A DNA stretch of 64,000 bases, taken from NCBI GenBank assembly GCA_021432655.1, contig MU271318.1:1-64000 (forward strand). The letters run 5' to 3'. Positions 9,801 through 59,399 of this stretch are shown in pieces. The notes beneath the pieces were generated by a model. It did not search any database, was not told where the DNA came from, and was given only the letters and a program-made list of their open reading frames with translations. This stretch comes from Atractiella rhizophila (taxonomy: Eukaryota). Both the position numbers and the translations under genes were made by a program. Positions within the stretch are counted from its first letter, which is position 1. Every line of letters begins with the position of its first letter.

Positions 9801-10490
9801 GCAGAAAGACACCGTCGCACGGCGTTCACCTTCCCAACAACCCCATGACCTCGTGTTCAACGTAAGGAGAGGCAGCATACCTAGGATATCCAGCAAATCT
9901 ACTTCTTTCTCACTCCTATCGCCCTGCTCGCAGCGACAAAGAAAGACCTCCCCAACCCGATCCTTGAAAGCTTCCTCGCCATCCGCCCAACCTCCACTCC
10001 AACCTTCTAGCAATAAATAATGCGCCACCATCTCTGGCATCAGTTCAGTCCAGCGTCTATCCTCTTCGACAAGCTTGCTAACATAACGTTCTGATCGATA
10101 GCTCTTGCGAAGGAATTGTCGAGCGCGATCCAAACTGGACTGGCTTGGGTCGGAGTGCGGTGTCACCATCCTCCCATTCCCAATCAAATGGTTGTGCACC
10201 TTCTGAAATATTCGTGAGAGGGATGGCTAAGGAGTTTGGTGATGGAGGGGAGGAAGGAGAGGAATGCGAGAAGTCGATGGCACCCATAATCACGTCCTGG
10301 GTTCGAGATTTGGCAAGAAATACGTCTGCTCTTCTGCCTGACAGACGACCTGAGCTGGTGAACAACGTTGTCTTTCCATTATCCTTGAGCGGTCTGACAC
10401 GCCGGCCGTTTCGCGAACGCTTCGTGGGAGCGAGGTTGTCGAGGCTATGGAGGGTGGATTGGGGATGGGCTGGTCGGTTCGGTTTAGACG
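6889..10490 (-). CDS. CxC1-type KDZ transposase, multi-exon (start approximate; one or two apparent frameshifts)
   Basis: CxC1-like CRC...FCRCTPEPVRLLCMGYLPASPHSPRTAFSIRFLRFHH. KDZ core CPPCFG, FSMDGNF, DTGLFAAVCRHD, QYDIAC, PTFHGYAHGWDCQ, GFGQSEGEGTERTWS. C-terminal DDPFWNDG...RAVEELRRVGWE and an acidic tail. Confidence 0.9.
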
Positions 10491-12726: not shown

Positions 12727-14340
12727 ATGAACCGAAGCACTTTCCCCCGTCAGATCCGTTTACAGGTACGTCCTTGACTCCGTTCCTCAAACCTGATGAG
12801 ATGACCGAGGCAGCGTTAGAATGTTTGCAACATTACTGGTCGGGTTTTCGACTTTGGAGAAAACCCCCTCTACCCAGAGGCTAGCAAGACAATAACGAAG
12901 TGGTTTTCCAAGTGCGTTGCTCCCGTCCAGTGCTGATTCCGCCTGAACTATTATAAACAGGTATACAATGTATGACGAGAAGAAAAACCGAAAGTTTTTG
13001 GCAGGCCAGTTCGACTTTTTTGCTGGAATCAGCTTTCCCGACTGTGATCTTGAGCGTCTCGAAACTTGTCTAATGTTTTACTTCTGGGCATTTGCGGTGA
13101 GCGGCTTCCCAGCAGGAGCCTTTCGTTTCCGTATACTGAATTGTACACAGGCTGATGACCTTGCGGACGAAGGCGAGCTAGCAAATCGTCCAGAGGAAGT
13201 CGAGAAGGGTAGGTGCCAACTCGACACCTGCAGGCGTGTTTACACTTCATTTCTAGGGCATATGATCCAACAGAGCATCATCGACAAACTAGACGGCCCA
13301 GAACCTGAGTACCCCTATGCTTCAATGCTTTGGCAGTGCGTTTTCTTTCTGTTGCACTCTCATCCCTAATATCCCACTCAGCTTGCTACGCCGCATGAAG
13401 AAGACAGCCAGCCCTGGAGTTATCCGCAGATTCATCGAGTCTTATTACCTTCACAGCAACTCGCACATGGAGCAATGCACCCTTCGTCGGGAGGAGCGGC
13501 TCTACTCTATCCATGAGTTCATTCTGATGCGACGAGCAACCATCGGCTCAGGTCTCGTTAAAGCCATCACCGAGTATTCTGTCGACCTGGACATGCCCGA
13601 TTATGTCTTCGAGCATCCTGTCATGAAGGCGATGTCGGATGCGACCGACGACATCCTTACTTGGCCTAACGATCTCTGCTCCTTCAACAAGGAGCAAGCG
13701 GATGGGGACTACCAAAACCTCGTCTTTATCATTATGGCCGAGCATAAAGTCGACCTGCAGACGGCGCTTGACATGCTTGTGGATATGATTGCTCAGCGGG
13801 TCCAGGACTACGTGAACCTGAAGAAGCAGTTACCGAACTGGGGTCCAAAGGTCGATGCCGCGGTCGCGAAATACAACAAATATATCGAGTACATGGTCCA
13901 AGGTTGTGTTGTCTGGTACTACTCCAGCCCACGTTAGTTTTCTTTTCACAATGGTTCAAATTCTCAGTATTAATTTAGGGTACTTTCAAGGAGTCTCTGC
14001 GATTGGGAAGGACTACATCATGTGGGACTTGTATGAGCCTTCTGAGCCAACAGTCGAAACGACGAAAGCCGACTCGGAAAACTGTTCTCTTTCTGCGTCG
14101 CTTCTGCTGGGCGAGGACGACTCCGTTCCTTCCACACCAGGTACCGAGCAGGAGGGGTTCCGGGACTCATTTTCAGTGCAGAATCCCAGCACCGTCTCCC
14201 TTAAGCCAGTTTCGGTAATTGGGTCTTCGACTGAACGCTTTCTCAAGGCTCACCCCATCGTCTCTTTCACGGTCTTAGGGAAACTTTCTATTTCCTTTCC
14301 CTTCTCGCTCATCGATACCTTTCTCCATCCCGGCATTTAG
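12727..14340 (+). CDS. Class I terpene cyclase (sesquiterpene synthase-like), multi-exon
   Basis: Spliced model MNRSTFPRQIRLQ|NVCNITGRVF...NPLYPE...|...FWAFA|ADDLADEG (DDxxD), effector-like RRATIG, NSE motif NDLCSFNKE, and terminal SPR|YF. GT-AG introns at ~12766-12819, 12912-12960, 13097-13150, ~13209-13256, ~13337-13381 and ~13934-13978. The 3' end is uncertain. Confidence 0.9.
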
Positions 14341-17047: not shown

Positions 17048-19343
17048 ATGTCGACACCTTCTCCTCAGAAACCGAGACAGTCTTCCTTAGCAGTTCCGGA
17101 GCAACCCCATTCTACTCCTTTCAACCAGCGCCGTTCTGGATCAGACGTTCATGCATCTAACCTAGAATATCCTGAGGCGTATAGAGCGGCTGAAAGAGAG
17201 ACCAGGGGGAAATGGGTGTCTATGAAGATAGACAGATTTATGGGGATGGTCGGGATGAGCAGCCCTGAGGCTGAAGAGGCGCTGTCAGAGCTGCTCGAAA
17301 GACGCGAACCCATCATACTTCCAGCTGCTGAGACCAAGCAGTACGATGTTATGGTACGTGCCTTTATCAGTCATGGGGATGAGTTTCATAGATGCAATAG
17401 ATCGAATCGATGAGCTCTTATTTGGATAGCGGATGGCAGCAGGTTAATACCTCCGCTCATACGGACACACACATTCCCGAGCTCTTCGGTGCAACTGGGG
17501 TCAAACCAGATATAATTCTTTATTCCCCATCCAGAAGGGCTGTTGAAGGTCGAATTACGGATATGAAGGAGGCTGATTTGTTTTGGGAGTTTAAAATTGG
17601 TGTCCTCCCGTTTCACGACGCTCCAAACGAAAAGGGCAAGGGCAAGGAGAATCCCGACGAAGGTGAGATCGAAAACAATACCTTGGAAGCGACGATCAGG
17701 AAGGACGACGACGATGATATCCCAAGCGGCTTTGAGAATCGAGCCGACAACGCGGTGGAGCTTCGTGGCCAAATAACGCTTTACAACACTGTCATTCAAA
17801 TCCTCCAACACAGGACTCGCGTTTTTTCCATCTATATTGGTGGAGAAACAGCGCGCCTCCTTTGTCATTCTCGCGCCGGCACTGCCGTCACCCTTCCGTT
17901 CAATTACAATAAGGAACCCTATCTTCATGAATTTTTGTTTCGATACACGCGCGCTACCCGAGTTCAACGAGGGCATGACGACACGTACAAGGAACCGAGC
18001 GACCCTGTCGAGGAAGAAAATGCAAGGGACCGCCTTAGCCTTGGGGCTGACGATCCACTGTACGTCGTCAAGTTCGGTTTGGCGAGCTACTACGTCTCGA
18101 AACCTTTCACCGACTTTCACATGTATCCCGTCGGTCGTAGCACGAAATGTTTCTACGCGTATTGCCCTCGTCTAAAGGAGCTTGTACTTTTGAAGGATAT
18201 CTGGAGGAAGATGGAGTACGAAAAGGAAGGAGACACGCTTCGCAAATTAAATGTGGCAAACGTCCCCAACGTTCCCGCCATTCTTGACGACTGCGATATC
18301 GAGGGCGACCTTCAGAAGATTGAGGAGCCTTATCGCCAGGCGATGCAACATTACGTTCAGGTAACTGACAAGATCGGACGCCCTCTTTCTTCCTTCACGT
18401 CCAGCTGGGAAATGGTCAACGCGGTCTGTGACGCCATTCGAGGTGTGTTTCTGCTGCGTTTTTGTTTATCTGACCAGAACACAGCTCACGAAGCCGCATG
18501 GGAGAGGACGAACATTTTACACCGCGATATTTCCTCAGGCAACATCCTTATTTACGATCCACCATCAAGGTCTGACAGCGGGCCAGTAGAGTCGCAAGGA
18601 CTTTTGATTGATTGGGAAATGGCAAAAGTGGAGTCGTCAGAGTCATTCCCCCGCACTACCGAACGCACTGTACGCCCTCTCACTCAACTGCACGACGCGT
18701 TTCTGAATTGTGAGCGATGTAGGGTACCCACCAATTCATCGCTCTTGAACTCTTGAGTTCAGGTCGCGTCCAACACGAACCGCGGCATGACCTAGAATCG
18801 TTCATTTATGTCTTACTTTGGATCGCATTACGACATGCCAGTAAGTCCAAGATGCTAGAGGACAACAGAGACGACTTGCTGGGATATTTCGATCGCAAGA
18901 GAACGATGGCGAAAAGCCGCGCGGCGAAATTGAATCTTCTCAAGTCCCCCTCTCAAGTGTTACATCTCCATCTAGACACGCCAGGGTTGCGCGACGCGCT
19001 TGAGTCAGTTTGGCGGCCCTTTCAGGCTTATATGGAAGCCGTCGAACTTGGAATGAACCGGGAAGTTGACAAAATTATCTTGACGCATTCAATTCTGATT
19101 GAAAAGCTTGTATCTGCCCTTCGAAACAAGAATTGGAAACAGACGAAGGATGCATCAATCGAGTTCATGGTGCGGAAACGGAAGAGAAAGGATGCAGATG
19201 AAGATGAAGGCGGAGGAAGAGACGGGAAAAGATCACGGAGCGGAGGCAGGCGAAGTGAAGCGAGCGGTGGTGGAAGGAGTGGGAGGAGCACCAAGAGTGC
19301 GGCGGACAGTATGAAGAGCTCTGCAAGCCGAAGGAGAAGTTGA
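17048..19343 (+). CDS. Fungal-type protein kinase (FunK1 / Pkinase_fungal family)
   Basis: QHRTRVFSI, GRSTKCF, VLLKDIWR, ILHRDISSGNILI, GLLIDWEMA, RT|GTHQF, HEPRHDLESFIYVLLW. Introns 17354-17400, 18443-18484 and 18670-18722 give a continuous frame. Confidence 0.92.
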
Positions 19344-23989: not shown

Positions 23990-26230
23990 ACTGCGACGTC
24001 TGTGTAAGCAAACCTAGTATGGTGAAGAGAGGGCGGTCGTAAATAGGGAGATAGCTTCTACGAAGCTGCCGGTCTCCCCCTTTTCTCACCCTAATGGAGG
24101 ACCAGTGGAGGTTTCGGGAAGGACTGCAACTCCTGCCTAGTCATCGATAGCTCCGTAACCATCCGCTCTTCTGTCGGTAGCACGAGTAAGTCTTGCCTTT
24201 AACCGTAGCTCCTTGGTATAGCCTTCTCTAAGGGCGCGTTGGGTTAGTAGAGTCGTCATTGTCATCAAAGACGGAGGATCGGCAGAGTGCCATCCTAGCA
24301 CGTCTTAGCCATCTGCGCGTATAGAGAACCAGGTATGCCTCCGCTGCCTTTGTGTTAGAGCAGATAAGCCTGGGACCTCCGTGACAACTTCTGCCCTCCT
24401 TAGTTCCTGCGGCTCCATNNNNNNNNNNNNNNNNNNNNNNNNNGCGGACAGCGTTGGGCATCTCTGAGAAGAAATGAGCCATTTGGGTCAGTCCTACAAG
24501 CCCTAGTTGTTCCGGGCCACCGACGACCTGTATATAAAGAAGGAGATTAAGAGGTACATTCTTACGTAAAGGTTGCAGCTTGACAGGGTCCCAGGTAGGC
24601 AAATACCGCCGTTCGCGTTCCTGTTGAGACTACCACCTGTACGCATGGTAGCCTCGCATCCAAAGGCATTTTAGAGCTGGGAGGTGGACGAATAAAGGTT
24701 CCCGTTGATCAGCGCGGAATATAAAGTCTTTAAGCGGGGGGTTGAAGGAGAAGAACGAATTGTGGGTGAAGTCACCTTATCCTTGCTGAGACAGGCCAAA
24801 GCCGACATCGCCTGGGTTTTGGGGATAGGGACACTAAACAGGGGTGAGGGGAGGCGTACGAGGTCAGGTGGGCAGGGAAAGAAGCGGGTAGTAACGGAAG
24901 CTTTTGCATCCACATAGCAGTAAGGGCAGGGTTAAAAGACAGGTGGCACTTACGGGGTGGAGGTTGCAAGGGCAGGCAAACACGGAGTAGTTTTTAGCGA
25001 CTACGGACCTGGTCTAAAAGTTGCTGGCAGGAACGGAGGGCGTGAAAGAAGCTGAGGACAAGAGACTAGGGTCCGGAGTCCTGTTGTATACGTGAACCAT
25101 TCAGGACATATGGGCTCAAGTAGAAGAATATTAGAGCAGCGTCCCAGAAAGATCTACTAGCCGCTTGTAGACCAGATCCACACCAACGTACAGGGGTATA
25201 GGGGGCGGCATAGCAGCACAAGGAGTGCATAAGACAGGGGGTGTCCACGATGGAGTCAGACCAGAAGGCCTTCCGGGGGTATGGCACGCGCTTTAGTACC
25301 TGTGGGGTTAAGGAGGGGGTCTTAAGAAGATAGGGTCGGAGATTTCGGCGAGATCGGAGGAGCGCAGAGTAAGGGAAGGAAAGAGCTATCTTCTGGGGAA
25401 GCTTGGTAAGCTGTAGTCGGCTAAGTTTATGATGGGAGAAGAGGCGTAGGGTGTTAGAGGTAGGACGGCGCAGAAGTGTTATAGGGTCGTACATAGGAAG
25501 GGAAGGGGATCCAACTTCGAAGCTAAGAACTGCGAGGAAACCCTACCATCGTTGAGGGTTACAGGGTTTTCGTTGTTCCACTAGGTACCTGCCATTAAAA
25601 GGCATATTACGGAGCATACCCGAGGACCGTAGGCACTCACGGAATACACCATGGGGAGTTCATATCTATTTTGACTACAACGGTATCGCAGGGGGGTCTT
25701 TTGACTGTCCTTTTGGCGAGACATCATTATTGCGAGACCAGTACAAAGTCGTTACAGTTGGTGCCTACGAGGTAGTACGGGTATACCAACACAAATATCC
25801 GTTAGCAACAGAGTACGACTTAAGGAAGACAGGAACATTTCCAACGGTCTCAGTAAGGGTACATGAGACGACGGGATAGCCAAGCATAGAAGAATTAAAA
25901 TTGAGGTACAAAGGGCAAGTTTAGCCGACTAGGTAAGGAAATCGTGTGCTACCCACGCCTGTGGAAGCTTGCTTCGCCTTAGGTGGTATACCTTGCACAC
26001 GAGAGGAGGTCTTACGGGTACGGTATTGCAAGGGGTAAGGAGTAGGGTTGAGCTCGTCCAGGGGTATACAGTGAGTTTTAAGAAAGTGGGTCTTGCGAGA
26101 GGCTGTAGACGACGAAGCCGGACAAACAGAAGCATCAGCTGAATCTGTAGCGTGTGCAGTTCGTGAAACCTTAGGGAAGTAAACTAAAGCTAAGGCAATT
26201 GCAGTGTAAAGGTTCAAAGGGGAAAACGTT
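23990..26230 (-). pseudogene. Heavily mutated long reading frame of unknown identity (probably TE-derived), TpA-rich
   Basis: Minus-strand frames extend through repeated TAA/TAG stops, e.g. upstream of ORF 25066-25494. TpA is in visible excess. Confidence 0.45.
24419..24443. other. Assembly gap (25 N)
   Basis: Run of n characters. Confidence 1.
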
Positions 26231-27752
26231 GGGGAAGAGTTGGAACGAAGAATACAGCACGATGATGAAGGAGGAAGGATTCGTGAAATCACAGGCTGAT
26301 CACGGAATGTACGTTAGACAGGATCATAGGGGACTGGTAATAGTACTCTTACACGTGGATGATGGACTCGTTGCATCGACGTCGACGGATTTGCGAGACA
26401 GCTTGATGAAGAAAATGGTGGCGGTCTTCAAGAGAGTTACACATGGCGAAGTGGGAGAGTACCTTGGGATGCGGATTACCCAGGATCGCGAGAATCGGCG
26501 TATAACGATGGATCAGATCGACTACATCAAGAGATGTATTGCGAAATACGGTTTTCACGACTATTCTGTTGTCAGCACACCTTGCGATCCGAAGGACAAG
26601 TTGACAAACGATATGTCACCGAAGACTGAACGGGAGCAGGCGGAAATGGGAGGGATACCGTTCTCGGAGGCAGTTGGTGCCTTGATGTATCTGGCAGTCA
26701 ACACGCGGCCAGATATTCTATATGCCGTAAATCGAGTGAGTAGGTATATGGTAAACCCGGGGATGGGACATTGGAAGGCAGTAACGAGGATTTACCGATA
26801 TTTGAAAGGGACAACCGGAAGGGTTTTAAGATGGGATGGGAAGGGTACATCGAATGAACTGGTAGGATGGTGCGATGCGGATCATGCGGCGGACATCGAC
26901 AGCAGACGGTCGATATCTGGTTGCCATTTCAATCTGGCGGGCGGGATGGTCTCTTGTTTTTCGACTGCTCAGAAATCGGTAGCAATCTCGTCTACAGAAG
27001 CTGAATACATGGCACTCTCTTTGGCTGCGAGGGAGGCGGTATGGTTGAGAGAGATCCTGAGGACACTTGGATTTGAACAGAGATTCCCAACGATAATACG
27101 GGGTGACAATCAGAGCGCAATAATCCTCGCGAAACATCCGGCAAACCACAATCGAACGAAGCACAACGGCGTGCATTATCACTACACGAGAGAAAGGGTT
27201 CAGGGCAAGGAAATTGTGATGAAGTGGTCCCTACTTCGGAGATGTCAGCGGACGTGTTCACAAAAGGGTTGGGTGCTGAGCCACATTACCGTTTCTGCTC
27301 GTCGTTAGGACTGCTGTGAGGGGACGGGGATACGAGCGGGCGTTCTATTGAAGATGTAAGACCCGTGGAAACGGTCTGTCCAATTCTATTATCGGGTAAC
27401 CATTAGAACGCTGATGTGCACGGGGGGACCATCGAGACAAACACGGGGATTGAGTGGACTGAAACGGGATAGGGCATGGAGAGGCGGAAAGAGGAGGGGC
27501 ATAAAGGTGGAGGAGCGGTGTGCGGCGATCGAGGAGGGGTGTTGGAAGTATCCAGTGTGGTACGATCACCGCACACGGGTGTACGTACGAACGGTCAATG
27601 ACCTGCTCTCCCTAGGTGCTTACCACCAGGGATGAGCAGGTAGGAGTCTCGGATAATAGTCATGCTAGGTGCTTACCACCAGGGATGAGCAGGTAGGAGT
27701 CTCGGATAATAGTCATGCTAGGTGCTTACCACCAGGGATGAGCAGAACCACA
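26231..27752 (+). mobile_element. 5'-truncated Ty1/Copia copy (RT end, RNase H, PPT, 3' LTR)
   Basis: LLHVDD, RPDI, WCDAD, STEAEY, DNQSA. Nearly identical to the reverse complement of 48240-49762. Confidence 0.95.
27540..27752 (+). repeat. Copia 3' LTR (213 bp)
   Basis: TGTTGG...AACCACA, preceded by polypurine tract GAGGAGGGG. Contains internal 53-bp tandem units. Confidence 0.92.
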
Positions 27753-29260: not shown

Positions 29261-29289
29261 TAAGTAAGTACCTGGTAATTGCCGCTCAC

Positions 29290-31400
29290 TATCGAACCCT
29301 TGTATACATATTTGAATATATACTTGACTGAACGAATTGAGATACAGATCTCAGTGTTGATATGAGCTAGAAACTTCCTCAGGACCCAAGCATTAAAAGG
29401 CACTACCCATCGATTATCATATATAAACTCTTGGCCACGTATCATCTTGCGAAAAACCCGACCATCGTTACGCCGCCGATAGGTAGGGTAGCCACTATCA
29501 TTGATTCTCGTTTCCTCAACAAAAGGCTTGGGATACCCTTTGCCACACTTCCCATTGACCATGCAAGGTGCATCTGGATTATGTTCACCACATGGGCCAT
29601 GTAGCATATGCTTGGTGACTATTTCAAATAATACAGGATCCTTGTCCAGATCAGGCAGCTCTGCTTGAATTACTTGATCAATAGTTGCCTGGTCCCTGAT
29701 AAGATCTTCAGGATGAAGAATCAACAGGATGTGCGCATGTGGTAGACCCCTCTTCTGAAATTTAATGACCCAGACATATCCGATAACCCTTCCAAAGATC
29801 TGTCGTACCACTAAATCCTTGATGTACTCCAGAGCCTTCAGTCAAAAAAGCCTTGAAACCAAATCTGGCCGATCCTCTGGTTTTTGTCTGGTAGGAGGGT
29901 CCTTTGGCACCAACTATACCCATTGCATCCTGGAACAGCTGATTCATTGACCGTGGACCGCCAGTGAAACTTGATGGTAATATAGTCCGCCTCCCGATAT
30001 CTTCTAAAGAATAGCCTTCTGTAAGGGCATCTGTAAGACCTTGATACACCTCAGCTTGAAGAATAGACTGATTGAACTGCAGATAGCGGAGTCGATTGCC
30101 TCAATTTGAGCATAAGCATCGACTACCAATTCTTGCAGTAGCCGACCACCGTAGAGAGGGAGTGAGAATATATCATTTCGTTGATGCAACATGTAAGAAT
30201 AGAACTCCATTTGGCTGACACGTTGTCGAACCCCGGAATTATCAACTTGCATGCCGTCATCATTCAAGTGCTCTCGCTCGCAAGGAGGAAGATCGGCAGG
30301 CAGGTCTCGATACGGAATCTGTGGATGCCATCCTTGGTCCCCATATGGAAATAGAAGAGGAAAACGAAGTGGAAGGTAATTTGAGTTGAGCTCATTGACA
30401 CGCTGTAAGTTGCTACCGGTTGTGGTTGCCCTGAGCTGGATGACAATATCTCTGGCCACTCCATATTCTTCTCTGTTACCATCTCCTACCATCACTACAG
30501 CAACTTCACCGGCTACAGGAATGTTGTAGCATCTTGGGTCCCTATCTCGTGGAGCGACTGTGCGAAGATGTAATGTGGTAGTGGGATCCTGTTCCATTCT
30601 TTCTTTCACAAATTTGTAGATCCTGGGATATGGGTTGACACGGAAGAGCAGAGCCTGAAGGTCCTCAAGCATACTACAATTCAGTGAGACTGAAGTGTTG
30701 CCAACTCTTCGTTCAGTCTGTACAGCTGAATCTGTAATGTAGACCTGTGCAAATGTTTCACACCCTTCTTGTTGTGGTAAAAGAGTACCAATAAGGTGGC
30801 ATAGCTCTCCCTGAATTTCGAAGGAGTAGGGACCATGTCCAGGAATTGATACCTGGCGGACGCCTAAGGATGTAAAGGCAAAAGCATTATTGAATCCCCT
30901 GATATGCTCTCGAAATGTCTTTGATTCTATAATGATTGTTCCTCTCAGATATGTAATATGCAAAAAATTGAATAGAAATACTTACCTGTTGTATTGTGAT
31001 ATGTAAAAAGCTTTCGTAGCTCTTCAGGTGGAGGCGGGGGAACAGGTAGCAGCACCTTGCCATGGAGACAGCACAATGCAACCTTTGGATTTCATTGTGG
31101 GCTGTTAACGATCTTCTCTTCCATCCAATGAAAGGCTTTGCAATGTGTACAAAGTAATCCCCAAGTAGAGAGGTGGTGTGCCTTAAGATCCATATCAGAT
31201 GAGTAGTTGAATGCAGGATAGTGACGTTGCCTCATTTCGTCTCGCAACAATGGGACTAATGCCCTATCCTCATCACTGTCCGCACCGTCAGGATCAGGAG
31301 AGGATGGGTGTGATTGGGCTTCTTCTTCACTGTACTCCTCAGGGGAGGGTGAACGCTGTCTCTGATGTCGTCGAGCTGGTCGTGACGATATAGACAATGA
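29290..31400 (-). mobile_element. Helitron Rep (HUH endonuclease) remnant; helicase absent
   Basis: CTHCKAFHW, FNNAFAFTSLG, FAQVYITD, FPLLFPYGDQGWH, VVDAYAQIE, ILPSSFTGGPR, IKFQKRGLPHAH, MLHGPCG, YPTYRRR, KYIFKYVYKG. Truncated after KG. The segment normally carrying the FxTFTCNP motif appears deleted. Confidence 0.93.
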
Positions 31401-34952: not shown

Positions 34953-37900
34953 ATGTCTAAAACTCCGGTCAAGGTTTTTAAAGTCCCCGAAAATATCAAG
35001 AAGGCGAATCCGTTGGGATTGCGGGTCCTTTGCATCGACAATGGCGGCATCCGCTACTTTTCCGCTCCATACATGCTTGAACAGATAACCCTTCAAACCA
35101 GTCACCTTCTCAAAGTGCCAGATAATGAAGATCTCCGTCCCTGCGATATTTTTGATCTAATCTGTGGGACTTCCACTGGTGGATGGATCGCGCTTATGCT
35201 TGGCAGGCTGGGAATGACCGTTCGACAATGCATTGCAGCGTACGAAGAGATTATGGAGAACGTGTTTTTGAATAACGTCCCAAGCCCCAGTGACGGTAAC
35301 GCTTAGCAAAAAAACTCGAGGAAACTTTGACCGCTATCTTCCAGCGACATACGGATTCTTCCCAAGACTCTGCGAAGTCTCTTCCGATGAAAGATGCTTA
35401 TTTGCAGGACAGATGTAGAACGTTCGTGGTTTCTACCTACGAGTCCAACGTCGTTATTTCCACAGAGATGCGTACATACGATATTCTTGGTGCTGGATCC
35501 TCGCCGTTTATACCTGCCTCCGCTTATACGGTCTGGGAAGCTGCAAGGGCGACTGCCGCTGCACCTCTCTTCTTCCCTCCCATCAACATGGATTCCACCG
35601 GGTACGTTTCGTTATTTCGCGACAATCCTACGGCAATAGCTGTCGAAGAGACCAAGCGAATTTGGGGGCAGAGTAGTGAGATTGCTTGCCTTGTGTCTCT
35701 CGGCTCTGGAGTTGCACCTGCTGTCAAGTTAGATAATGTCGAGCGAGCTTTGAAGGCGATAGCTGCGGACTGCTCGAGGGTTGCGAACGACATGAAGATG
35801 AAGATGCAGCGACGTCAGATGGGCCACTGCTACCATCGTTTCTCGGTTGATTCGTTCGGAGATTTCAGGTGGGAAGAATGGGAACGAAAGAATGAAGCTG
35901 TGGGATGCACGAAGGCTTACATGGATGCGCTGTGTTATGAAGTGCTCCCTGCTGCTCAATCGCTAGTGAAAGGTAAGTTCCTCCTGGTTGTAATTGCATG
36001 CGCATGCTCACTTTCTACTTGTCAGCTTGCATCGATCGTATTGCAGTGTACAAGAAGATTCCACTACCTCCTCTTGGTGGTTGTTACGGAGGAGGAGAGG
36101 AAGTTCAGAAAGCGATCAACTTCATTGTCAGCGATCACAGACACCTTGCCATCATCGGCGGCGCTGGTAACGGCAAATCTACGGTCGCACTAGAAGTCCT
36201 GCATGCAGACAAGATCAGGAGAGAGTTCACGACTGTGAGAGATGGAAAGGAAGAAGACTTTCGTTTTTGGGGCCGATGTGACCCTTTCTCCGACTTCTCC
36301 TCGCTCTCCGCCTACCTCTGCAATGACGTTTTTGGATTGGCTCGCCAACCTGGAGAAAACGACCTTGCCGCGGTAGCGAGATATTTCCAAGAGCACAAAT
36401 GCATCCTCTTCTTGGATAATTTCGAGACCCCCGCACGGTCGGACAAGAATACGCTGCAACCATTCTTCCAATCCCTTCTTTCCAGAAACTGCTCCTCTGG
36501 TTCCATACTCGTCGTAGTACACCGCGGCCATCAGGTGGAACGGGTGAACTCGACAGGAGTAAGATTTCAAGAGCTAGTAATTGGCGGCTTGAGTGACGGT
36601 GCCGTACTGGACATGTTCAACGATATGTACACTGCTGGGAGGAGAGATTGCTCGAGTCGGGAACAGGTAGTGAAAACCATCGTCAACATCCTGGACCATC
36701 ATGCTTTGTCTATCAAGCTCTTCATTCTTCGCGCCAACGCGGAATCAACCAAGCCGCTTGCATTTTTGGTTGAGGAGTGGGCGGCAAAGAAGACCACCCT
36801 CTTATGGAACGAAGATAGCGAGGAGACACTCACTCTCGCCACTTCGATATCTTTTTCGCTCGATTCACCTCTTCTCAGAAAAAATGAAAACCTCAGCACT
36901 TTTATCCTTGCCTTATTATCGTGGACTCCTGACGGTCTCCTGGCAGACGACATTATCGCTATCGGGGATAACAGCTGTCCTCATCAATCGAAACAGTCTT
37001 CCGTGCTCGTTACCTCCATCTTAACCGTCGGGCTTGCTGAAGATACCATGGATGTCCTGACAAACTCGAAACGTTTGTGCATGCTGGCACCAATTCGCGA
37101 ACATATCAATCGCTTGGCCCTAGGTCCCATTCTGCCTTTCAAAGACACTGCTTTATCACTTCAGCCGTTGACTAAAGTTCTCATAGAGAAGGCTTGTACA
37201 AATGTGCGACGATTCGAAGATGCAGCTGAGCGGATCGGACTGCTATTGTTTCGCAACGATTATCCAAACCTTGAATATGTCCTTCTAGCTGCCTTTAACA
37301 CCTGGATGATCCGACAACAGCATACATCTTCCTAGCAGAAACCTGGAGTTTTCTGCATCTTCAAGGCCTTCCCTCCATGGCACTGTTTCAATCCGTTTTA
37401 TTCTACACAAGATCCATCTCTGTTACATCAATGACAGCTGCATTGACGCTGGGTCTTGGATATGCATTTCGACGGAAGGGAACCTACAAGAGGCGCTGAT
37501 ACGGTTCGAGGAGGCGAAGGAGCTGTATATGGTTGTGGAAGAACAGCGGGGCCTTGCCTACTGCATTTGCGGCATGGGGATGATCGAGCAGGGTCGTGGG
37601 CGGAACAAGAAAGCGTTGAAAAGGTTCGAAGAGGCGAAGGAGCTGTATGTGCTGGTGGAAGATCAGGGCGGCCTTGCTGACTGCATTCGCGGCATGGGGA
37701 TGACCGAGCGGGATCGCGGGCGGAACGAGGAAGCATTGAAACGGTTTGAGGAGGCGAAGGAGCTGTACATGATTGTGAAAAATCAGCGGGGCCTTGCCCA
37801 CTGCATTTCCAGCATTGGGGAGATCGAGCAGGGTTGTGCGCAGAATGAGGAAGCGTTGGGATGGTTCGAAGAGGCGAAGGAGCTGTATGTGGTTGTGGAA

Positions 37901-38371
37901 GATGTGGCAGGTCAACTTAACTGCCTTGCCAACATGGCTTCCGTTTATGAGGAAGACCACCAGGTCAATAAAGCGATTGATCTGCTTTGGGAAATGATCA
38001 ATTTGAGCATGACGGTTGGAGGCTATTATGAAGCTCATAGCAGAGGGAAGATGGGCCGACTGCTCTTCAGGCTATCAATGCACTCAGAGGCCAGGAAGGA
38101 AACTATGCATGCCCGTCAGCTTTATGCGGAATGCAGTGCAGCTTCAGACATAACCAATTGCGACAAGTTGTTGGAGGCAATCGCTGGGACAGAAAAGGGA
38201 TCGGATGTGAGGGAAGGACCCCTAGGTGTCACAGAACAGGTATCCAGCGTGAGGGAGGGTTGTGCATCTCCTCCAGGGTTGGCATCCAAAGGATGGGAAG
38301 AAGGCTTCGAAACTGCGAGGCATGATTCGGTGGTTCCGGTACATTTCACCTCACAGTCTGGTACAAACTAA
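34953..38371 (+). CDS. Fungal NLR: patatin-like domain, NB-ARC/STAND NTPase and TPR repeats (three 1-nt frameshifts, possibly assembly errors; ~1120 aa if repaired)
   Basis: Patatin IDNGGIR, GTSTGG, ARATAAAPLFF. Intron 35973-36025. Walker A GGAGNGKST, Walker B ILFLDNFE, MLAPIRE, then 40-aa TPRs. Frames join if one A is added at each of ~35298, ~37297 and ~37488. Confidence 0.88.
37490..37960 (+). repeat. Four highly similar 120-bp TPR-coding repeats
   Basis: GGTT(C/T)GA(G/A)GAGGCGAAGGAGCTGTA at 37503, 37623, 37743 and 37863, encoding FEEAKELY. Confidence 0.92.
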
Positions 38372-38964
38372 TCTTCTGTTGCAGTTGATAGATACGTGAG
38401 CGCCTCACTGTTCTATGTCTCTTTCAATCAGCGGAGAGGCTCAGCGCTGCAAAGTAGAAAAGCCTTAGTTGGTCTTAGATTCGGTGCGTAAGGAGCAATA
38501 TATCAAGTTATATTCCACCTGCTCTGCAGGTGTTTTCTCAGGGCTTTTCAGTGGAATCTTTTTGGTATATGTTGACTTGAACAATGCAACTTGCACTTTT
38601 TGTTTAGCCACCAGAAGGCCGCTGGCTAAAAGTGGTTTTGTGCTTCAGTTTTTGAGAACACAAGTGTGTCAGAGGCCTTTGTCCCTCAGGTCCCCCAACC
38701 CACTCGCAAGGGGCATGGCCCCCTACTGTGACTCTGGTGAGGGTTCGAGCCCAGTTGAAATGCATTTTTTACCCCCTTCGGAATAAAATTTCCTCGCAGC
38801 TTCAGAAAGGCACAAGCATGTGCAGTAAGATGATGTAATTCATTTTGTCTCAATGGGCCTGGTGAGGGAGGTATAAAGGCTCAAAAGTGTGTTTTATGAT
38901 TCATGCCAAGAACGGATGGCTTTTAGAGGTAAGGATTTACACAGGACCCGCAATAATTTGAAGA

Positions 38965-48672: not shown

Positions 48673-51600
48673 TCACAGCAGTCCTAACGACGAGCAGAAA
48701 CGGTAATGCGGCTCAGCACCCAACCCTTTTGTGAACACGTCCGCTGACATCTCCGAAGTAGGGACCCACTTCATCACAATTTCCTTGCCCTGAACCCTTT
48801 CTCTCGTGTAGTGATAATGCACGCCGATGTGCTTCGTTCGATTGTGGTTTGCCGGATGTTTCGCGAGGATTATTGCGCTCTGATTGTCACCCCGTATTAT
48901 CATTGGGAATCTCTGTTCAAATCCAAGTGTCCTCAGGATCTCTCTCAACCATACCGCCTCCCTCGCAGCCAAAGAGAGTGCCATGTATTCAGCTTCTGTA
49001 GACGAGATTGCTACCGATTTCTGAGCAGTCGAAAAACAAGAGACCATCCCGCCCGCCAGATTGAAATGGCAACCAGATATCGACCGTCTACTGTCGATGT
49101 CAGCCGCATGATCCGCATCGCGCCAGCCCACCAGTTCATTCGATGCACCCTTCCCATCCCATCCCAAAACCCTTCCGGTTGTCCCTTTCAAATATCGGTA
49201 AATCCTCGTTACTGCCTTCCAATGTCCCATCCCCGGGTTTACCATATACCTACTCACTCGATTTACGGCATATAGAATATCTGGCCGCGTGTTGACTGCC
49301 AGATACATCAAGGCACCAACTGCCTCCAAGAACGGTATCCCTCCCATTTCCGCCTGCTCCCGTTCAGTCTTCGGTGACATATCGTTTGTCAACTTGTCCT
49401 TCGGATCGCAAGGTGTGCTGACAACAGAATAGTCGTGAAAACCGTATTTCGCAATACATCTCTTGATGTAGTCGATCTGATCCATCGTTATACGCCGATT
49501 CTCGCGATCCTGGGTAATCCGCATCCCAAGGTACTCTCCCACTTCGCCATGTGTAACTCTCTTGAAGACCGCCACCATTTTCTTCATCAAGCTGTCTCGC
49601 AAATCCGTCGACGTCGATGCAACGAGTCCATCATCCACGTGTAAGAGTACTATTACCAGTCCCCTATGATCCTGTCTAACGTACATTCCGTGATCAGCCT
49701 GTGATTTCACGAATCCTTCCTCCTTCATCATCGTGCTGTATTCTTCGTTCCAACTCTTCCCCGCCTGTCGCAACCCGTAGAGACTCTTCTTTACTCGGTA
49801 AACCCAGTCAGGATGTTCAGGATCAACAAGGCCCGGTGGCTGCTGGACATATATCTCTTCCTCTAATTCTCCATGTAAGAATGCATTTCCAACGTCGAAC
49901 TGTCCCAGGGTCCATCCGTTTATGGCGGCAAGCGCAAGGACAACTCTGATGGTGGACATGCGTACCGTCGGAGCGTAGGTTTCCGTAAATCTCGACCCTC
50001 CACCTGCTTATTTCCAAGGGCAACTAGTCGCGCCTTATATTTCAGAAATTCGCCCCCCAACTTCCTCTTCTTGCTTAACACCCACTTCAGTGGAATAGGA
50101 ACGACTCTGTCCGGTTTCGGCTGTAGCGGACCCAAAACCCCCATCCCTGTGATTTGTCCCCACTCCCCTCCGCATGCTCCAGTCCACCCCTCCCTTTCTT
50201 CGCCCATCATTGCCTTCGAAAACGTAGGTGTATCGTCATTCCCGTCCCAATTTCCGTCCACCGCGAATGCCCCACCTCCAACGTTCCCGTCCGTTTGTGC
50301 CTCATCAAAAATCGCTGATGCCTGGACCAGATTTTCAACGACCGTCCTTGCCTCCCGCACTTTCTTCGACTCCTGTTCTCTGATCCCAGGCCTCAGGACA
50401 ACATATGCACTTGGTAAGTCCTGTATACCCGAGTTCATCTTCTTATAATCTCGTCGTAGGGTCTTCCTAGATGATCGGCGAACATCTGGTCTAGGTGTGG
50501 TTGCACGTCCCATATCCCCTGCCGTATTGTCGTGTTCCTCACGTATTCTGTCCCCCACAGGTGCTACCTCAGTCTGGTCTTCCGGAAGGCCCCTCATACC
50601 GTGCGCGAAATCATGGACACCCCAATTCCTCCCCCAGAATTCTTCTATCCCAGCCTCTAAAGCCGCTCTAGCCTCCTCGCGTCTCATTCCCTTCCTTTCT
50701 CGATAGAAGACCCCTTCAAACCATTCGACATCAGCCGATTCAAATACTACCCTCTTCTCCGCATCCCACAATCTCCATCCTGCCGCGTCTTCACAATATC
50801 CCAGCATGTATCCTTCCCTTCCCCTAGGTTGAAGCTTCGATTCTTGACGCTCCTTTGGGATGGTAGCAACTCCCAATGTCCCAAAAGCAACAAGGTGATC
50901 CATGGACGGTAATTTTCCGTATAACGCCTCGTATGGGCTCCTGGCATCCGTGAGTGCCTTATGTGGTACCCTCAAGTATAGATAAACTGATGTTGCCATA
51001 GCGTCCCCCCAGAAACTGACAGGAAAACCGCTCTGTAGTAATAACGCTCTGGTCATGTTCAGCAATGTCAACCACGGATGCTCCATCATGCCCATATGGT
51101 TGTGTTTATAGGCAATCGTTGTCTCATGCTGAATTCCTTCTGTCCTTGTAAAGGTTGCCAGAGTCATTCCCATGTACTCTGCTGCCCTATCGGTTCGTAT
51201 CTTCTTAATTTAACTCCATGTTCCCGTTCAAATCGGCTGATCCATTCCTTTAGCACGATGGGTGCGGACACCTTCGAACGAAGCGGAATCCACCATATGG
51301 AACGTGTGCTCTCCTCCAGAATGCCCATGCCATAACGTTCCCCGTTCCTCATCCCAACTCGAGCAGGTCCCCATATGTCACTCAAAATTCTTTCACCCAG
51401 AACGCTCTCCGACATCTGCTGCTTCGGCCTGTTTGTCTTCGTAGTCGACTTAGACATCGCACACGTCAAGCACTTTGGAATCCCTTCATTTGATTTCGAT
51501 TTCGTTAACGTCACATTTCCAAGTTTCCCCTTTTGCAACATATCCTTTATCTTTCCAAAACTCAGATGTCCCAGTCGTTCATGCAGGGTATGCAATTCAA

Positions 51601-52393
51601 CTGATTTCGCAATCGAGGACGTAGACGAAAAGCAGACATGAGCGTCGAACGTTGTGTGAGATGGGATGTAACTTGCCTTTACGGCGACGTTCTTTTCCCC
51701 AATAACCGCAAATCCTATCGATCTCCCATCGTCGATCCCATAGTATATCGTTTCGCGGTCGTTCGTGAATCGCATCCCATTGCGCATAAGCTGCATGGCA
51801 GAGATAAGATTGATCCCCAATTGTGGTAGATAGAGGACATCTTCGAAGACGACAATGAACCTGGTTCCATCCGTGTTCTCCATGACTGCATGGATTTCTC
51901 CAACAATCTTCGTGGTACCCGAACTATCAAAGACTCCTCGCAGGACGACCGGTTCCTCTATTTCTCGAACATTGTGAAGTAAGTTGAAGGAGGAAACCAT
52001 GTGATATGTGGCACCCGTGTCATGTATCATCTTCAATGTTGCCAGCGGAGTTCGCGGTGGAAGAATGTCCTCATGCCAATCAATTACTCGGAACTTCGAA
52101 TCCAGAATGGGTCCATCACCTCTTGCCTTCCCAGCAAAGGCTCCGTTCCATACACACCACACCCCATCCATTCCCGAAGGCATCTCCCAGTTCTGTACCC
52201 CAAGAGCGCCTCCCATGACATCTCTGTCATATTCTTCATATTCTATTCCTTCAGACGAATATCTGCATTCTTGGTTGAAGGCTGGATGTTCGGGAGGGAG
52301 AGGATTGTCTTTGCCATAACCAGGGACATAGATCGGGAAGGTGGATAATGCAGCAGGATTGTCAGGAAGGTGTCGCCCCCGCTGTTCAAACCC
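48673..52393 (-). CDS. pol: Copia pol (protease, integrase, RT, RNase H) with 1-nt frameshifts at ~51210 and ~49988
   Basis: HDTGATYHM, LHERLGH...CLTC, SDIWGP, IRTDRAAEY (after repair), YKARLVALG, FDVGNAFLHG, LHVDD, ADVFTK. Confidence 0.93.
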
Positions 52394-53905
52394 CTACTGT
52401 ACATAGGCAGGAACCCAAGCAAGGTCGTTAGGTCCGAACACGATTGATCCATCTCCAGTTCCATCAGCTCTCCCATCGTCAATGTGCACGTTAACGGCTC
52501 CCACAATGTTCTTTGTTCCGTCATCGTCCGCCGTCGTATTCAATCGAGAGACAGCCAGGCCACTGACGTTCCACTGAGTGATACCCGTATAATATCTCCC
52601 TACTTCTGCCGCTCTTGCTCTCATTCGGGTGTTGACATCCGCCCCCTTCAGTCTACATGTTTCTCCACGATGCCCCTCCTGAAAACAGACATGACATCTC
52701 CCATTCAACATCAGCTTTCCGCCAGCTGTAAATCCACCATTCCAAGCTCTTCCAGGAATCTCTTGCAATTGATCAACACGTGTTGGATTTCCTCCATTCC
52801 TCAGAGGTAGTGCATATATCATCCTCTCGGACGATAGGGGAACGTTTCGGTATGGTCTTAGTGTGGGCATAAGCTGTTGTGACTTCGGACGGAATACACG
52901 TTGAGGTGGCGTCATTGTCGTTGAACCTCTCCTTGTCGGCGTGCCTGGAATGAAGTTATGCGTCCTGTTAGCAGTAGGTGTACGTGAGCTCTGGACGGAA
53001 TATGCGCTGGAGGGTTTGTGAGTCGGATAATCGAGGTATGTCCCGTTGGTAGGAGGTTGTCCCATCTCGATCCTCTTTAAGTCCATGTCCCACTGCTTGA
53101 TACAGAAATCCAGGATTTCGTCTAACATGGACTCAAACTTCTTATCCCTTAACGTCGGACTGGTGTAATCCCTCGCCCATTTCGGATCATTCTCTACCTT
53201 CTCCATCAACCCCGTCCATGGCGGCATTGATTGAGCCTTCAGGAGGTCAAGGAAGAACGAATTCAGGACTTTGTCTTCAGATCTAGCATCACTAATAGCT
53301 CGTTTCTTGGTTCGCCACTTATTCCACCATTCCTTCTGGTCTTCTCCCGCAACTTGCCTCATATTGACGAAATTGAGGAGGTCGAATATTTCCGATTGCT
53401 TCTGTAGAGCCCCGTATTGCGTCTTCAGGACATTGATCCTCTCACGACATGTCCCAAGTTTCGCCATCGAATCCCAATCACTCTCCGTCACAAGAGCCTT
53501 CAGGATAGTATTGGCAGCCGCATCATTTGAGATCCATTTCTGATAGGTGGTCATCTTAGAGGTAAACGAGGTTGCATTCTCCTTCAAACCGCCGATCGCG
53601 AAAGTAGGAAGTTCTGGTTTAGGCGTACCTCCACTCCCTTCCTCAAGAACAACCTCCCCAAAACCACTCCCTACCGCCAAGCGAATAAACTCTTCATACC
53701 AAGATTTCCAGTTCCCTGCCTCCAGCTTTCTACCACTCCAAAGACTCATCAAGTGATGCGCCATTGTCGCGACCGCCGCCTTCTCTTTCTCGTGGTCCAA
53801 GATGAGATCCAGGGTCTCACTGGATGCGTTTGATTCGGTTTCCTGCTCAGGAAAAGGGGTTGGAGCCGGCGATGGGGGCAGAGATATTAACTTGTCAACG
53901 TTCAT
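52394..53905 (-). CDS. gag: Copia gag
   Basis: 503-aa ORF after the PBS, with KLEAGNWKSW and zinc knuckle CHVCFQEGHRGETC. Confidence 0.88.
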   Translation of the reverse strand: MNVDKLISLPPSPAPTPFPEQETESNASSETLDLILDHEKEKAAVATMAHHLMSLWSGRKLEAGNWKSWYEEFIRLAVGSGFGEVVLEEGSGGTPKPELPTFAIGGLKENATSFTSKMTTYQKWISNDAAANTILKALVTESDWDSMAKLGTCRERINVLKTQYGALQKQSEIFDLLNFVNMRQVAGEDQKEWWNKWRTKKRAISDARSEDKVLNSFFLDLLKAQSMPPWTGLMEKVENDPKWARDYTSPTLRDKKFESMLDEILDFCIKQWDMDLKRIEMGQPPTNGTYLDYPTHKPSSAYSVQSSRTPTANRTHNFIPGTPTRRGSTTMTPPQRVFRPKSQQLMPTLRPYRNVPLSSERMIYALPLRNGGNPTRVDQLQEIPGRAWNGGFTAGGKLMLNGRCHVCFQEGHRGETCRLKGADVNTRMRARAAEVGRYYTGITQWNVSGLAVSRLNTTADDDGTKNIVGAVNVHIDDGRADGTGDGSIVFGPNDLAWVPAYVQ

Positions 53906-56366: not shown

Positions 56367-58037
56367 CTACCAATACTTCTCCTGCTCCTCCGACTCCGAA
56401 ATGCCCGACCTCTCGCTGTTTGCGTACTCCCTCATCATCATCCTTGCAGAGGCAATGTCCGCCTCGCGCCAATCTCCATAGAATAACCGAACACCAACAT
56501 GCACCTCCATCTCCTGTCCATAGATCCCCCTCTCAACTGCCCTCAAACGCCAATCCCCGAAGAACCAGCGGATGAAGTCTCGAAAGTGGAATGCGTCCAC
56601 CATACAGTACTGGAGTGTTATCTGATATATTGCCGTTGCATTTTTTAGGGTGCTGAAGAATGCAGGGGAAACAAGGTTTGAGGTTTCTTCGCCCCCGTCG
56701 AGGAACAGCTTGGTGAGGCGTGTGAGGGGCGAAAAATCGAGCGGAGTGCGTAGGGTAGAAGTTTTTCCGCCATCGGAGAAGGGAGAGAGTATCACAGTGA
56801 TATTTTCTAGAAGAAACGGCAGAGGGTCGTCTGAGATGGAGGAAGGCAGGGGGCACATATTGCGGAGAGACAGGTAGCGGAGGGTGGATGGGAGGGACAG
56901 CGATGGCAGAGGTGGGTACCTGTAGAGGCGCAGATATTCGAGGCGAGAAGATAAGTGAAGGCCTTCTGAGGCTGAAGCAGAAGAGTCCTCCACATCGTAA
57001 GCTTTGAAATCTATGATCTGGTCACCCATCCTCCGCATCGAGTTCTCGACCTCCTCCCTCCTCCACTTTCTCGAACCTTTCCTAAACATCACGTCATCCA
57101 GTCGTTTCAAGTCTTTGATTGCATCCAACACAATTTTCGCCTCCTCTTCATTCCAAAATGCATCCACTCTCACTTCCGTGACATTCGGTGAGCCTGCGAT
57201 GACTTCTTTCACCATCCCAACATCCGCACTTCTGTCAAACCACAGTGTGCCCCACAGTCGTCCGGAATCAGGATAGCGTTTCAACCGCGCATACTTTTCC
57301 GCCACAAAACCAGGTTCTTTCCAATAAGGAGCTGAAACATTACTCCACAGCTGACACACCTCGGAGAGGATAGAAGTGTTGTTGACAAAGCTGAATATAT
57401 GAGAGAGGAGCTCGACAGGCAGCCTCGAGATTGAGCATGAGCATGGAAAATCATCTGAAGGTGGGACAGAGAGTTGGATGATGCTAGCTGTCCGGAGGGA
57501 TGGGAGGGGTGACGATTCATAGTCCCTAAAGGGAACGTAGTATCCTCGGTAATCGGGATATGATGCCAGGGGGAAAAACATGGCATTCTCACGAAGGAGA
57601 GGAAATGTGCGAGTGTATGGATTGTCATATGAATCTACGGAATCGACGTCTCGTTTGACGCCTCCTTTGACGGCTCCTTTGACAACCGGCAAACGCCCTT
57701 CAGCCTCCGAAAAGGTTACTGTCACATTTTCGCGGTTGATGGTAATACGGAAGTTGACGACACCATCCTTGTCGGCCACATTTTTGAACCCTCCAAGTGA
57801 TAAATTAGACAACTTTGAGGACAGCTTCCCGGGATTCCAATACTGGTTCAATGACCGCGATAAGACAAACGAAATCCGAAGCGTGTGAATTGACGGAGGT
57901 AGGCGAGAAAGGAAAGACGGAAGAATGGAGAGGTCGATCCTATGGAAGCTGGTCACTGGGGTGATGGCATGGACAAGTGCGCACAAGTCTGACGCCTCGG
58001 AACCTTGGAATAGACGAGATGTTTGTTGCGCTGTCAT
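56367..58037 (-). CDS. F-box / RNI-like LRR protein (may have further degenerate 5' coding sequence up to ~59066)
   Basis: 556-aa ORF with ISRLPVELLSHIFSFV...LSEVCQLW and LxxLxL repeats. Confidence 0.75.
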   Translation of the reverse strand: MTAQQTSRLFQGSEASDLCALVHAITPVTSFHRIDLSILPSFLSRLPPSIHTLRISFVLSRSLNQYWNPGKLSSKLSNLSLGGFKNVADKDGVVNFRITINRENVTVTFSEAEGRLPVVKGAVKGGVKRDVDSVDSYDNPYTRTFPLLRENAMFFPLASYPDYRGYYVPFRDYESSPLPSLRTASIIQLSVPPSDDFPCSCSISRLPVELLSHIFSFVNNTSILSEVCQLWSNVSAPYWKEPGFVAEKYARLKRYPDSGRLWGTLWFDRSADVGMVKEVIAGSPNVTEVRVDAFWNEEEAKIVLDAIKDLKRLDDVMFRKGSRKWRREEVENSMRRMGDQIIDFKAYDVEDSSASASEGLHLSSRLEYLRLYRYPPLPSLSLPSTLRYLSLRNMCPLPSSISDDPLPFLLENITVILSPFSDGGKTSTLRTPLDFSPLTRLTKLFLDGGEETSNLVSPAFFSTLKNATAIYQITLQYCMVDAFHFRDFIRWFFGDWRLRAVERGIYGQEMEVHVGVRLFYGDWREADIASARMMMREYANSERSGISESEEQEKYW

Positions 58038-59399
58038 CTTCTGAGGAGATACAGCAGACTAGACCCCATAATGCACATTAGATGAGAAGAAGAATTCTGA
58101 CAAAGAAATCGTGCCGTAATCGCATCATAAGCCTTTGTCATCCTAACCATCAGCCTTCTCATCCAAGTCGTCCTTCTCTTCCGCCTTCTCAGGTTCCTTC
58201 CCATGCTGACAACTCTGTCGAAGATTTGACGACAAAGATAAACCGAGATCCAAAACTGTGCGCTGTGAGACCAACTAGATGAATAGTTCTTAGGAGAATC
58301 AAGGATAATGCGTAATAGATGGAGGTTTCGTTGTTAGGGGGTCGTTGTGTGCCTTTATTTGAAACGGAGAACTCGGACTTCAAGTCATTGAGGATGTGGG
58401 GAAAGGTAGGTCTACCTAGCCGCTGGACAAGTTGGAGTAAAGAAAGAGCGCTGTTTGAAGGGGAGACGTCCATATCTGTAATCGTGAATATCATGGTTTG
58501 ATACTCATCCATTCCCTACCAGCCGAGTTATTTTGAGGAGGGCGAACATGGTGGTGAGTGTCGCCGTCGGATGAAGGAGAAGAGGAAGGATGAGGGGTCG
58601 CGAGACTCGAGTGGTCCTGCGGAGTAGAAGCGGGTCTTGAATGGTGGAGAGAATGCAAGTTGGCGTCCTGGCTTTGATTTGAGAAAAGTGTGTAAGCGAG
58701 ATATTAGAGCGCGAATAGCACGGAACTATCATCCGGGGATTGCTCTCCTCTCCACTTAGTGTCGGGCATCGCTTCTCATGAATCCCCCGACACCTCCAAC
58801 TCTGCTCCGGTACTCCACCTTCAGATGGTTAGTAAGGAGGAACAGGTGTAAGAACATTGGTAGTGCTGAGTAGCCGCGCTACCCAAACATCCTCCCGCAA
58901 GCGGAAACGATTCAGTCGGGTGCACATGGTGCTTGTTGGAGGGAGAATCGATTGGTTCGGAGAGGTGAGCGTAGATGTACCTGACTTCGGATAATTCTGC
59001 ATCTTCGGGGTGGGACTGGTTGCGTATGTCGGAGAGGCTCCTAGGGTGAGTGGAATGGCTCGGCAAAGGGCGAGCAGCGGATTATGATTGGTGTGTATGG
59101 AGGTAGCAGGAAGGAGGAAGATAGAGGAAGGGCCGTCATCAAAAGCTGTCCTTAATACATGCAACGTCAGTTACCGAATCCATCTAAAAGTCGCACACAG
59201 CAATTCAGACCTGAACACAAAGACGACAATCTCGCGAAAGATGATACCGTGACAAAAGGGTTGACTAAAGCGAGTTGGCGCTGGAGAAGGGGCAGTGTGT
59301 TATAACCTCCAACGGGTATGGTGACAAGGGCTGAGTTCTGATAGGATTGTTGAAGGAGGGAGTTCCGCGCTCTGATATAGGGCGATATGAGAGTAGTAG

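Follow-up and report, generated by a model that had tools for sequence, protein, structure and literature searches.

A clade of patatin-headed NLR genes in the genome of the fungus Atractiella rhizophila has no catalytic Asp in any of its 51 open-frame members, keeps the nucleophile Ser in 50 of them and is under purifying selection. Fungal NLR patatin heads are usually regarded as direct lipase effectors. We put at roughly 0.5 the probability that this head is non-catalytic by the normal Ser–Asp route and has been retained for docking or nucleation once the NLR has oligomerised. The window, the whole stretch analysed, comprises 64,000 nt (contig MU271318.1 of assembly GCA_021432655.1, positions 1 to 64,000, forward strand) and holds two genes of this type, copy A and copy B, for which a preliminary description had proposed, from the letters alone, an NLR family with a patatin domain lacking the catalytic DGG motif.

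Two broken patatin genes in the window

Copy A occupies 34953–38399 on the + strand and copy B lies on the − strand, with the following parts.

34953–35306, +: copy A, N-terminal half of the patatin head, from ATG to the stop after the frameshift (Pfam Patatin positions 1–68 of 191, E 1e-8)
35037–35057, +: copy A, altered Gly-rich loop DNGGIRY (canonical DGGGxRG), with Asn here in 46 of 51 clade members
35166–35186, +: copy A, nucleophile elbow GTSTGGW (GTSTG at 35166–35180, Ser at 35172–35174) with a clade-specific Trp
35295–35312, +: copy A, frameshift, −4 nt relative to the paralogs (6 of 6 compared)
35315–35972, +: copy A, C-terminal half of the patatin head in another frame (Pfam Patatin positions 141–177 of 191)
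35600–35632, +: copy A, D-segment GYVSLFRDNPT, with Ser (35609–35611) replacing the catalytic Asp
35973–36025, +: copy A, GT–AG intron of 53 nt, whose removal brings patatin head and STAND domain into one frame
36026–37335, +: copy A, STAND NTPase, NACHT-like (Pfam NACHT, E 2e-6)
36157–36180, +: copy A, P-loop GGAGNGKS inside the STAND NTPase
about 37297, +: copy A, frameshift leading to TAG at 37333–37335, from comparison with paralogs
37478–38338, +: copy A, TPR array (Pfam TPR_12, E 1.2e-20), entered through a third frameshift at about 37478
38339–38399, +: copy A, second intron (38339–38384) and short last exon to the stop, from the joint in run X2 and translation
11964–10938, −: copy B, patatin head, pseudogene
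11825–11805, −: copy B, loop DNGGVST
11698–11684, −: copy B, elbow GTSTG
11263–11231, −: copy B, D-segment VYVQLSANNPT, with Gln at the Asp position
10937–10645, −: copy B, STAND remnant, from BLASTN against three paralogs; a deletion of about 475 nt took the P-loop and no TPR follows

Sequence and translation confirm loop, elbow and D-segment in both copies as the preliminary description gave them, and the Asp is indeed absent at the DGG site, given that Ser in copy A and Gln in copy B align with the D of YVDGG in CBASS patatins. In both copies the alignment to the Pfam Patatin model, which it had proposed as a check, breaks off at position 177 of 191. The C-terminal patatin half of copy A is 85% identical to the intact paralog L061/L002, and its D-segment is two residues shorter than the YVDGGMGTNNP of DGG paralogs. 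The NLR assignment stands for the parts, since patatin, STAND and TPR regions are all found in copy A, but not for the state of the genes: both are pseudogenes, which had been missed. Like the patatin–NB-ARC–TPR proteins named there, copy A has a patatin and a TPR part; its NTPase gives in Pfam a weak NACHT match (28.2 bits) and no match to NB-ARC (PF00931) at E 0.01.

There are three frameshifts in copy A; copy B combines frameshifts with a stop and the deletion of about 475 nt. In each copy the motifs are split over more than one reading frame. Compared with intact paralogs, copy A lacks 1 nt at about 37297 and 1 nt at about 37478 (5 of 5 paralogs reaching there), and contigs of the public runs X1, X2 and X3 cross the latter lesion without difference. 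At the 35306 lesion no correcting insertion is listed and no listed contig piece spans it; a tiny intron (GT..AG, 35296–35306) was rejected as too short at 11 nt, and both an intron and an assembly error were rejected on the plain 4-nt difference seen in the paralogs. The lesions of copy B are +8 and −1 nt near 11927 and 11908, −2 nt at about 11700, a TGA stop at 10990–10988 and the deletion, at about 10938 (3 of 3 paralogs). Because the window copies are pseudogenes, these two alone could not carry a family-level inference.

Run X2, whose type is unrecorded, was taken as RNA solely because it alone skips the two GT..AG introns of copy A. The spliced joint of the first intron occurs in this run only, in two contigs, and the X2 contig over the second intron matches exactly for 1,284 nt, with no differing letters. 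The skipping of both introns by X2 alone, together with this exact match, suggests that the contig is a spliced transcript of the copy A pseudogene.

The window region is transposon-rich, holding fragments of Copia-type retroelements (RVT_2, gag-pre-integrase) and of a Helitron helicase at 26175–27305 (+), 29263–30981 (−) and 48676–53905 (−). Directly past the truncated end of copy B lies a CxC1/CxC2 cysteine-cluster ORF of a KDZ transposase (9498–10226, −), which may mark the truncation. A terpene synthase domain (13293–13934, +; Terpene_syn_C_2, E 9e-37) is found upstream of copy B on the opposite strand, and the window also holds a fungal protein kinase in two frames (17401–19340, +; Pkinase_fungal) and a 563-aa ORF with a weak F-box-like match (56370–58058, −). 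No SNARE, as in the SEC-9 linkage of PLP-1/HET-Z1, was found among the 29 window ORFs scanned.

An Asp-less clade under purifying selection

Family searches of the genome carrying the window (G000) gave 150 and 115 matches, and the genome holds more than 100 family loci. We sampled 100 loci and later 20 more. Among the first 100, 64 domain matches span patatin in one frame; dropping two identical copies and one locus sampled in duplicate left 61 rows, and setting aside ten divergent rows (L127, L128 and L134 with DGG; L154–L156 with Asp and no GG; L140, L143, L144 and L158) left the clade of 51. The 37 of these 100 loci without an intact patatin frame comprise 24 with the clade-type Asp-less segment, 2 with a second Asp-less type and 5 with DGG, the rest being unreadable. 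The 20 later loci, 18 of them fragments, show a readable Asp-less site in four cases and DGG in none. In one locus (L083, G000:C98:1455-6955) the first ~105 residues of the patatin head are duplicated in frame, and L111, L112 and L113 carry identical patatin domains on two contigs, reflecting either very recent duplication or an assembly repeat.

In a FastTree tree of 60 rows a branch with support 95 separates the clade from all other rows, and a quick IQ-TREE tree gives the same picture at lower support; the clade call is based on branch support in these two trees. All sampled G000 patatins in the tree except L158 group apart from those of other fungi. The closest database proteins are labelled A. 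rhizophila, and no single domain from another species exceeds 37% identity. The head would have lost its general-base Asp once, ahead of the family expansion. A STAND match follows the patatin head in 49 of the 51 members, and at least 27 clade loci have 700 or more open codons past the P-loop, a lower bound given that loci end at the sampled stretch. Intact paralogs align through the TPR array of copy A, the TPR scan itself covering part of the paralogs.

In the family profile the residue after YV lines up with the Asp of the YVDGG motif in CBASS patatins of solved structure and was taken as the Asp position; relative to these patatins the profile has a two-residue gap just behind it. In the clade the site is free to vary, being occupied by Ala (14), Gln (13), Leu (8), Thr (5), Asn (5), Ser (5) or Gly (1), with 10 parsimony changes. 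The family-level loss put forward in the preliminary description is therefore supported by 0 of 51 open-frame members with Asp and by purifying selection, and the survey of paralogs it had suggested did not find DGG in most members but in none of the 51. Its alternative of a relocated acid residue found no backing in sequence: no conserved acid column was gained, all of them being acidic in DGG-intact sisters as well. The sole exception is a variable surface column with D or E. Asp197, which is near-invariant, lies at a hairpin turn between strands 194–196 and 199–202 and also occurs in DGG-intact paralogs.

The rest of the active site has fared differently from position to position. The nucleophile Ser is present in 50 of 51 members, with no Ala, Thr or Cys among the 51, is encoded by all four TCN codons (19/14/12/5) and shows 13 third-position changes against a single amino-acid change; Ser columns 101 and 232 are equally invariant, and the elbow Trp is found in 51 of 51. 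The loop starts with DN in 46 members and DS in 5, the first Gly of GGGx[K/R]G having become Asn or Ser. The phosphate-binding Arg is kept in 13 of 51 members and the two oxyanion Gly residues in 48 and 47, and residues 41–80 are the best conserved stretch of the head. Of the features of the patatin domain (PF01734), the fold and GxSxG elbow are there; of those of an active patatin phospholipase, the DGA/G Asp and GGGx[K/R]G loop are missing. The median dN/dS of the patatin head is 0.23 (439 usable of 1,275 pairs, all below 1), and patatin and STAND domains compared in 161 pairs from 38 loci give 0.24 and 0.26. Hence, the clade heads are under purifying selection.

The patatin alpha/beta fold is predicted to be intact in the clade. 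A model of the intact paralog L061 built from 125 sequences (pLDDT 88.6) superposes on patatin-17 with Z 34.7 and rmsd 2.2 over 297 aligned residues, followed by CapV, CapE and iPLA2-beta, with CapV, CapE and patatin-17 in the range Z 31–35. Because its alignment holds canonical patatins, the model is better evidence that the sequence fits the fold than of how the shortened segment is really shaped. Built from 47 clade sequences, an earlier model reached pLDDT 58 and was set aside as poor.

Dyad-intact sisters and patatins of other systems

DGG is present at eight G000 loci, intact in L127, L128 and L134 and broken or cut in L131, L136, L139, L152 and L160. Seven of the eight have no STAND match within the DNA sampled around each; L127, L128 and L134 terminate about 20 codons past the patatin domain, and four DGG loci share the stop LVDPEDQR. 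The exception is L160 (G000:C376:1-4432), the sole DGG patatin found fused to STAND and TPR-like frames, whose 5' half is off the contig. Given L160, active patatin NLRs may exist, and a sensor/executor split would not be clean. In the sampled stretches no stand-alone DGG gene was seen adjoining an NLR gene. A sister to the clade, L143 (G000:C209:68390-73890), combines DGGG, GSSTG and STAND with Glu at the Asp site and a shortened segment, and is possibly an intermediate state. Two further types occur in the genome. L144, L146 and L153 are Asp-less without STAND (YLAGVNDNSNP, YIAGVNGNVNP) and fall near the DGG stand-alone genes in the tree, and L154–L157 are stand-alone patatins with Asp and without GG (YVDASGAGHLNP), their loop reading DGSG or DGGGTWA.

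In other fungi the Asp is kept in 227 of 244 patatin domains. The 17 Asp-less domains have also lost the Ser in 14 cases and kept it in 3, one of which, P0012, matches G000 L146. Degenerate heads such as P0010 (Rhizoctonia solani), P0030 (Gloeopeniophorella convolvens), P0026, P0126 and P0150 share the Asp loss, several of them with a P-loop domain, but differ in having separate origins and an Asp-to-Gly point change without the two-residue shortening. Degenerate patatin heads thus arise repeatedly in fungi, and the Ser-kept, Asp-deleted state at such scale is confined to G000 among the fungal domains compared. Five fungal proteins (P0155, P0156, P0010, P0015 and P0040) have two patatin domains, one or both degenerate; in P0155 (Mycena leptocephala) an intact and a Ser-less domain are joined, possibly through a gene-model fusion.

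The family resembles PLP-1 (Neurospora crassa) and HET-Z1 (Podospora anserina) in its patatin head, P-loop STAND NTPase and TPR sensor. However, killing by PLP-1 is reported to require patatin activity (PMC12881547), whereas the Asp is absent throughout the G000 clade. In the study of Dyrka et al. patatin counts as a direct effector, with an average of about 1.7 patatin NLRs per species (PMC4986451), compared with the more than 100 loci of G000. CapV and CapE (CBASS) and patatin-17, the best structural matches, share the elbow and the ATSAAP...NP segment but are stand-alone enzymes with a Ser–Asp dyad and activation by nucleotide-induced filaments; the G000 family instead resembles the D192A state of CapV, for which abolished hydrolysis and retained filament formation are reported (PMC12480259). 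In patatins the Asp is described as deprotonating the Ser, and contacts of the D-segment within dimers or with partners as often ordering it and commonly activating the protein (PMC12871566). The available portions of PMC10197012 and PMC9815663 make no mention of inactive patatin heads, and a search of the openly accessible literature returned no description of an Asp-less patatin NLR family. The PLP-1/HET-Z1-type architecture is already known, and the large Asp-less, Ser-keeping family appears to be the new part.

Possible roles of the Asp-less head

Established NLR biology has the TPR array recognise a non-self or modified-self ligand and the STAND domain form oligomers. Sensing by the TPR array would thereby lead, through STAND oligomerisation, to clustering of the patatin heads, which would not hydrolyse lipid via Ser–Asp but would dock or nucleate instead, possibly lipid-bound. 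We read the head as a non-catalytic docking module because the Asp is needed to deprotonate the Ser and CapV D192A forms filaments without hydrolysis, and its conservation despite the loss of one of two catalytic residues makes such a module more probable than an ordinary lipase. The intact predicted fold, purifying selection, STAND–TPR fusion, freely varying Asp site and mostly lost phosphate-binding Arg speak for this reading, as do the intact DGG paralogs without STAND. Against it, a pure scaffold would not require so tightly held a Ser, the oxyanion Gly-Gly is mostly retained, L160 joins DGG to STAND–TPR, stand-alone DGG genes were not seen beside NLR genes in the sampled stretches, and the characterised relative PLP-1 is reported to need its patatin activity to kill (PMC12881547). 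The most economical downstream partner would be the few sister patatins of this genome that stand alone and have an intact dyad, through head-to-head assembly. A sensor–executor network derived from a single duplicated domain, in which ~50 Asp-less STAND–TPR sensors would nucleate and activate stand-alone phospholipases by patatin–patatin assembly, is a tentative proposal. A complex prediction for the L061 head with L127 scored 0.00 in two runs made without alignments and counts neither way.

The tightly held Ser could also mean that the head still works as a Ser enzyme but is activated non-canonically, be it substrate-assisted, through the clade-specific Asn of DNGG or by an acid supplied in trans from a protomer or partner, and such an enzyme might be slow or halt at the acyl-enzyme. 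Its retention through all four TCN codons, next to a mostly kept Gly-Gly and the best conserved stretch at residues 41–80, is unusual when 14 of 17 Asp-less heads of other fungi lost the Ser too, and plant pPLAIII is reported to be active in lipid metabolism with an altered esterase box (PMC4253999). Yet the clade gained no acid, Asp197 being shared with DGG-intact paralogs, structural reasons may suffice for a Ser no more invariant than columns 101 and 232, and the reported effect of D192A on CapV hydrolysis (PMC12480259) points the same way, so that we regard residual catalysis, the main rival reading, as possible but doubtful. Plain pseudogene decay would account for two broken window copies and 37 of 100 loci without an intact frame, but is extremely unlikely when 51 open-frame members share the loss at a dN/dS of 0.23 with many invariant residues, and 24 of the 37 broken copies are readable as the same inherited clade type.

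That the head is a bait or decoy, mimicking active patatins targeted by antagonists such as bacteria, mycoparasites or plant defence proteins, with its engagement triggering an NLR that signals otherwise, is unlikely. Fold and elbow have been retained with catalysis dispensable, and an arms race would fit the large expansion and its many dead copies; diversifying selection was however not seen in the head, where all 439 usable pairs fall below 1, and the head holds the N-terminal effector position with no other effector domain in the loci read. We consider it quite improbable that the head is a structural cap folding with or restraining STAND, with these NLRs inhibiting or modifying the few active patatin NLRs such as L160. 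That DGG-bearing, STAND-fused locus does exist, and pseudo-enzyme paralogs can regulate active ones, as reported for FLIP(L), a dead paralog regulating caspase-8 in a death pathway (PMC7586951), an analogy only, with an unrelated fold and a patatin–patatin interaction that is hypothetical here; but ~50 intact pseudo-heads against one partial active NLR are hard to explain by inhibition alone.

The window genes are dead and poor test subjects, but the family is real and testable. One genome offers test pairs of Asp-less NLR heads and dyad-intact sisters, ~45% identical, which address whether fungal NLRs use pseudo-enzyme adaptors or a patatin Ser works without Asp. With ~50 conserved members that have no general base, a patatin head can be retained for something other than canonical catalysis, and the sensor–executor network, if true, would give fungal NLRs a homotypic signalling route that is not amyloid-based.
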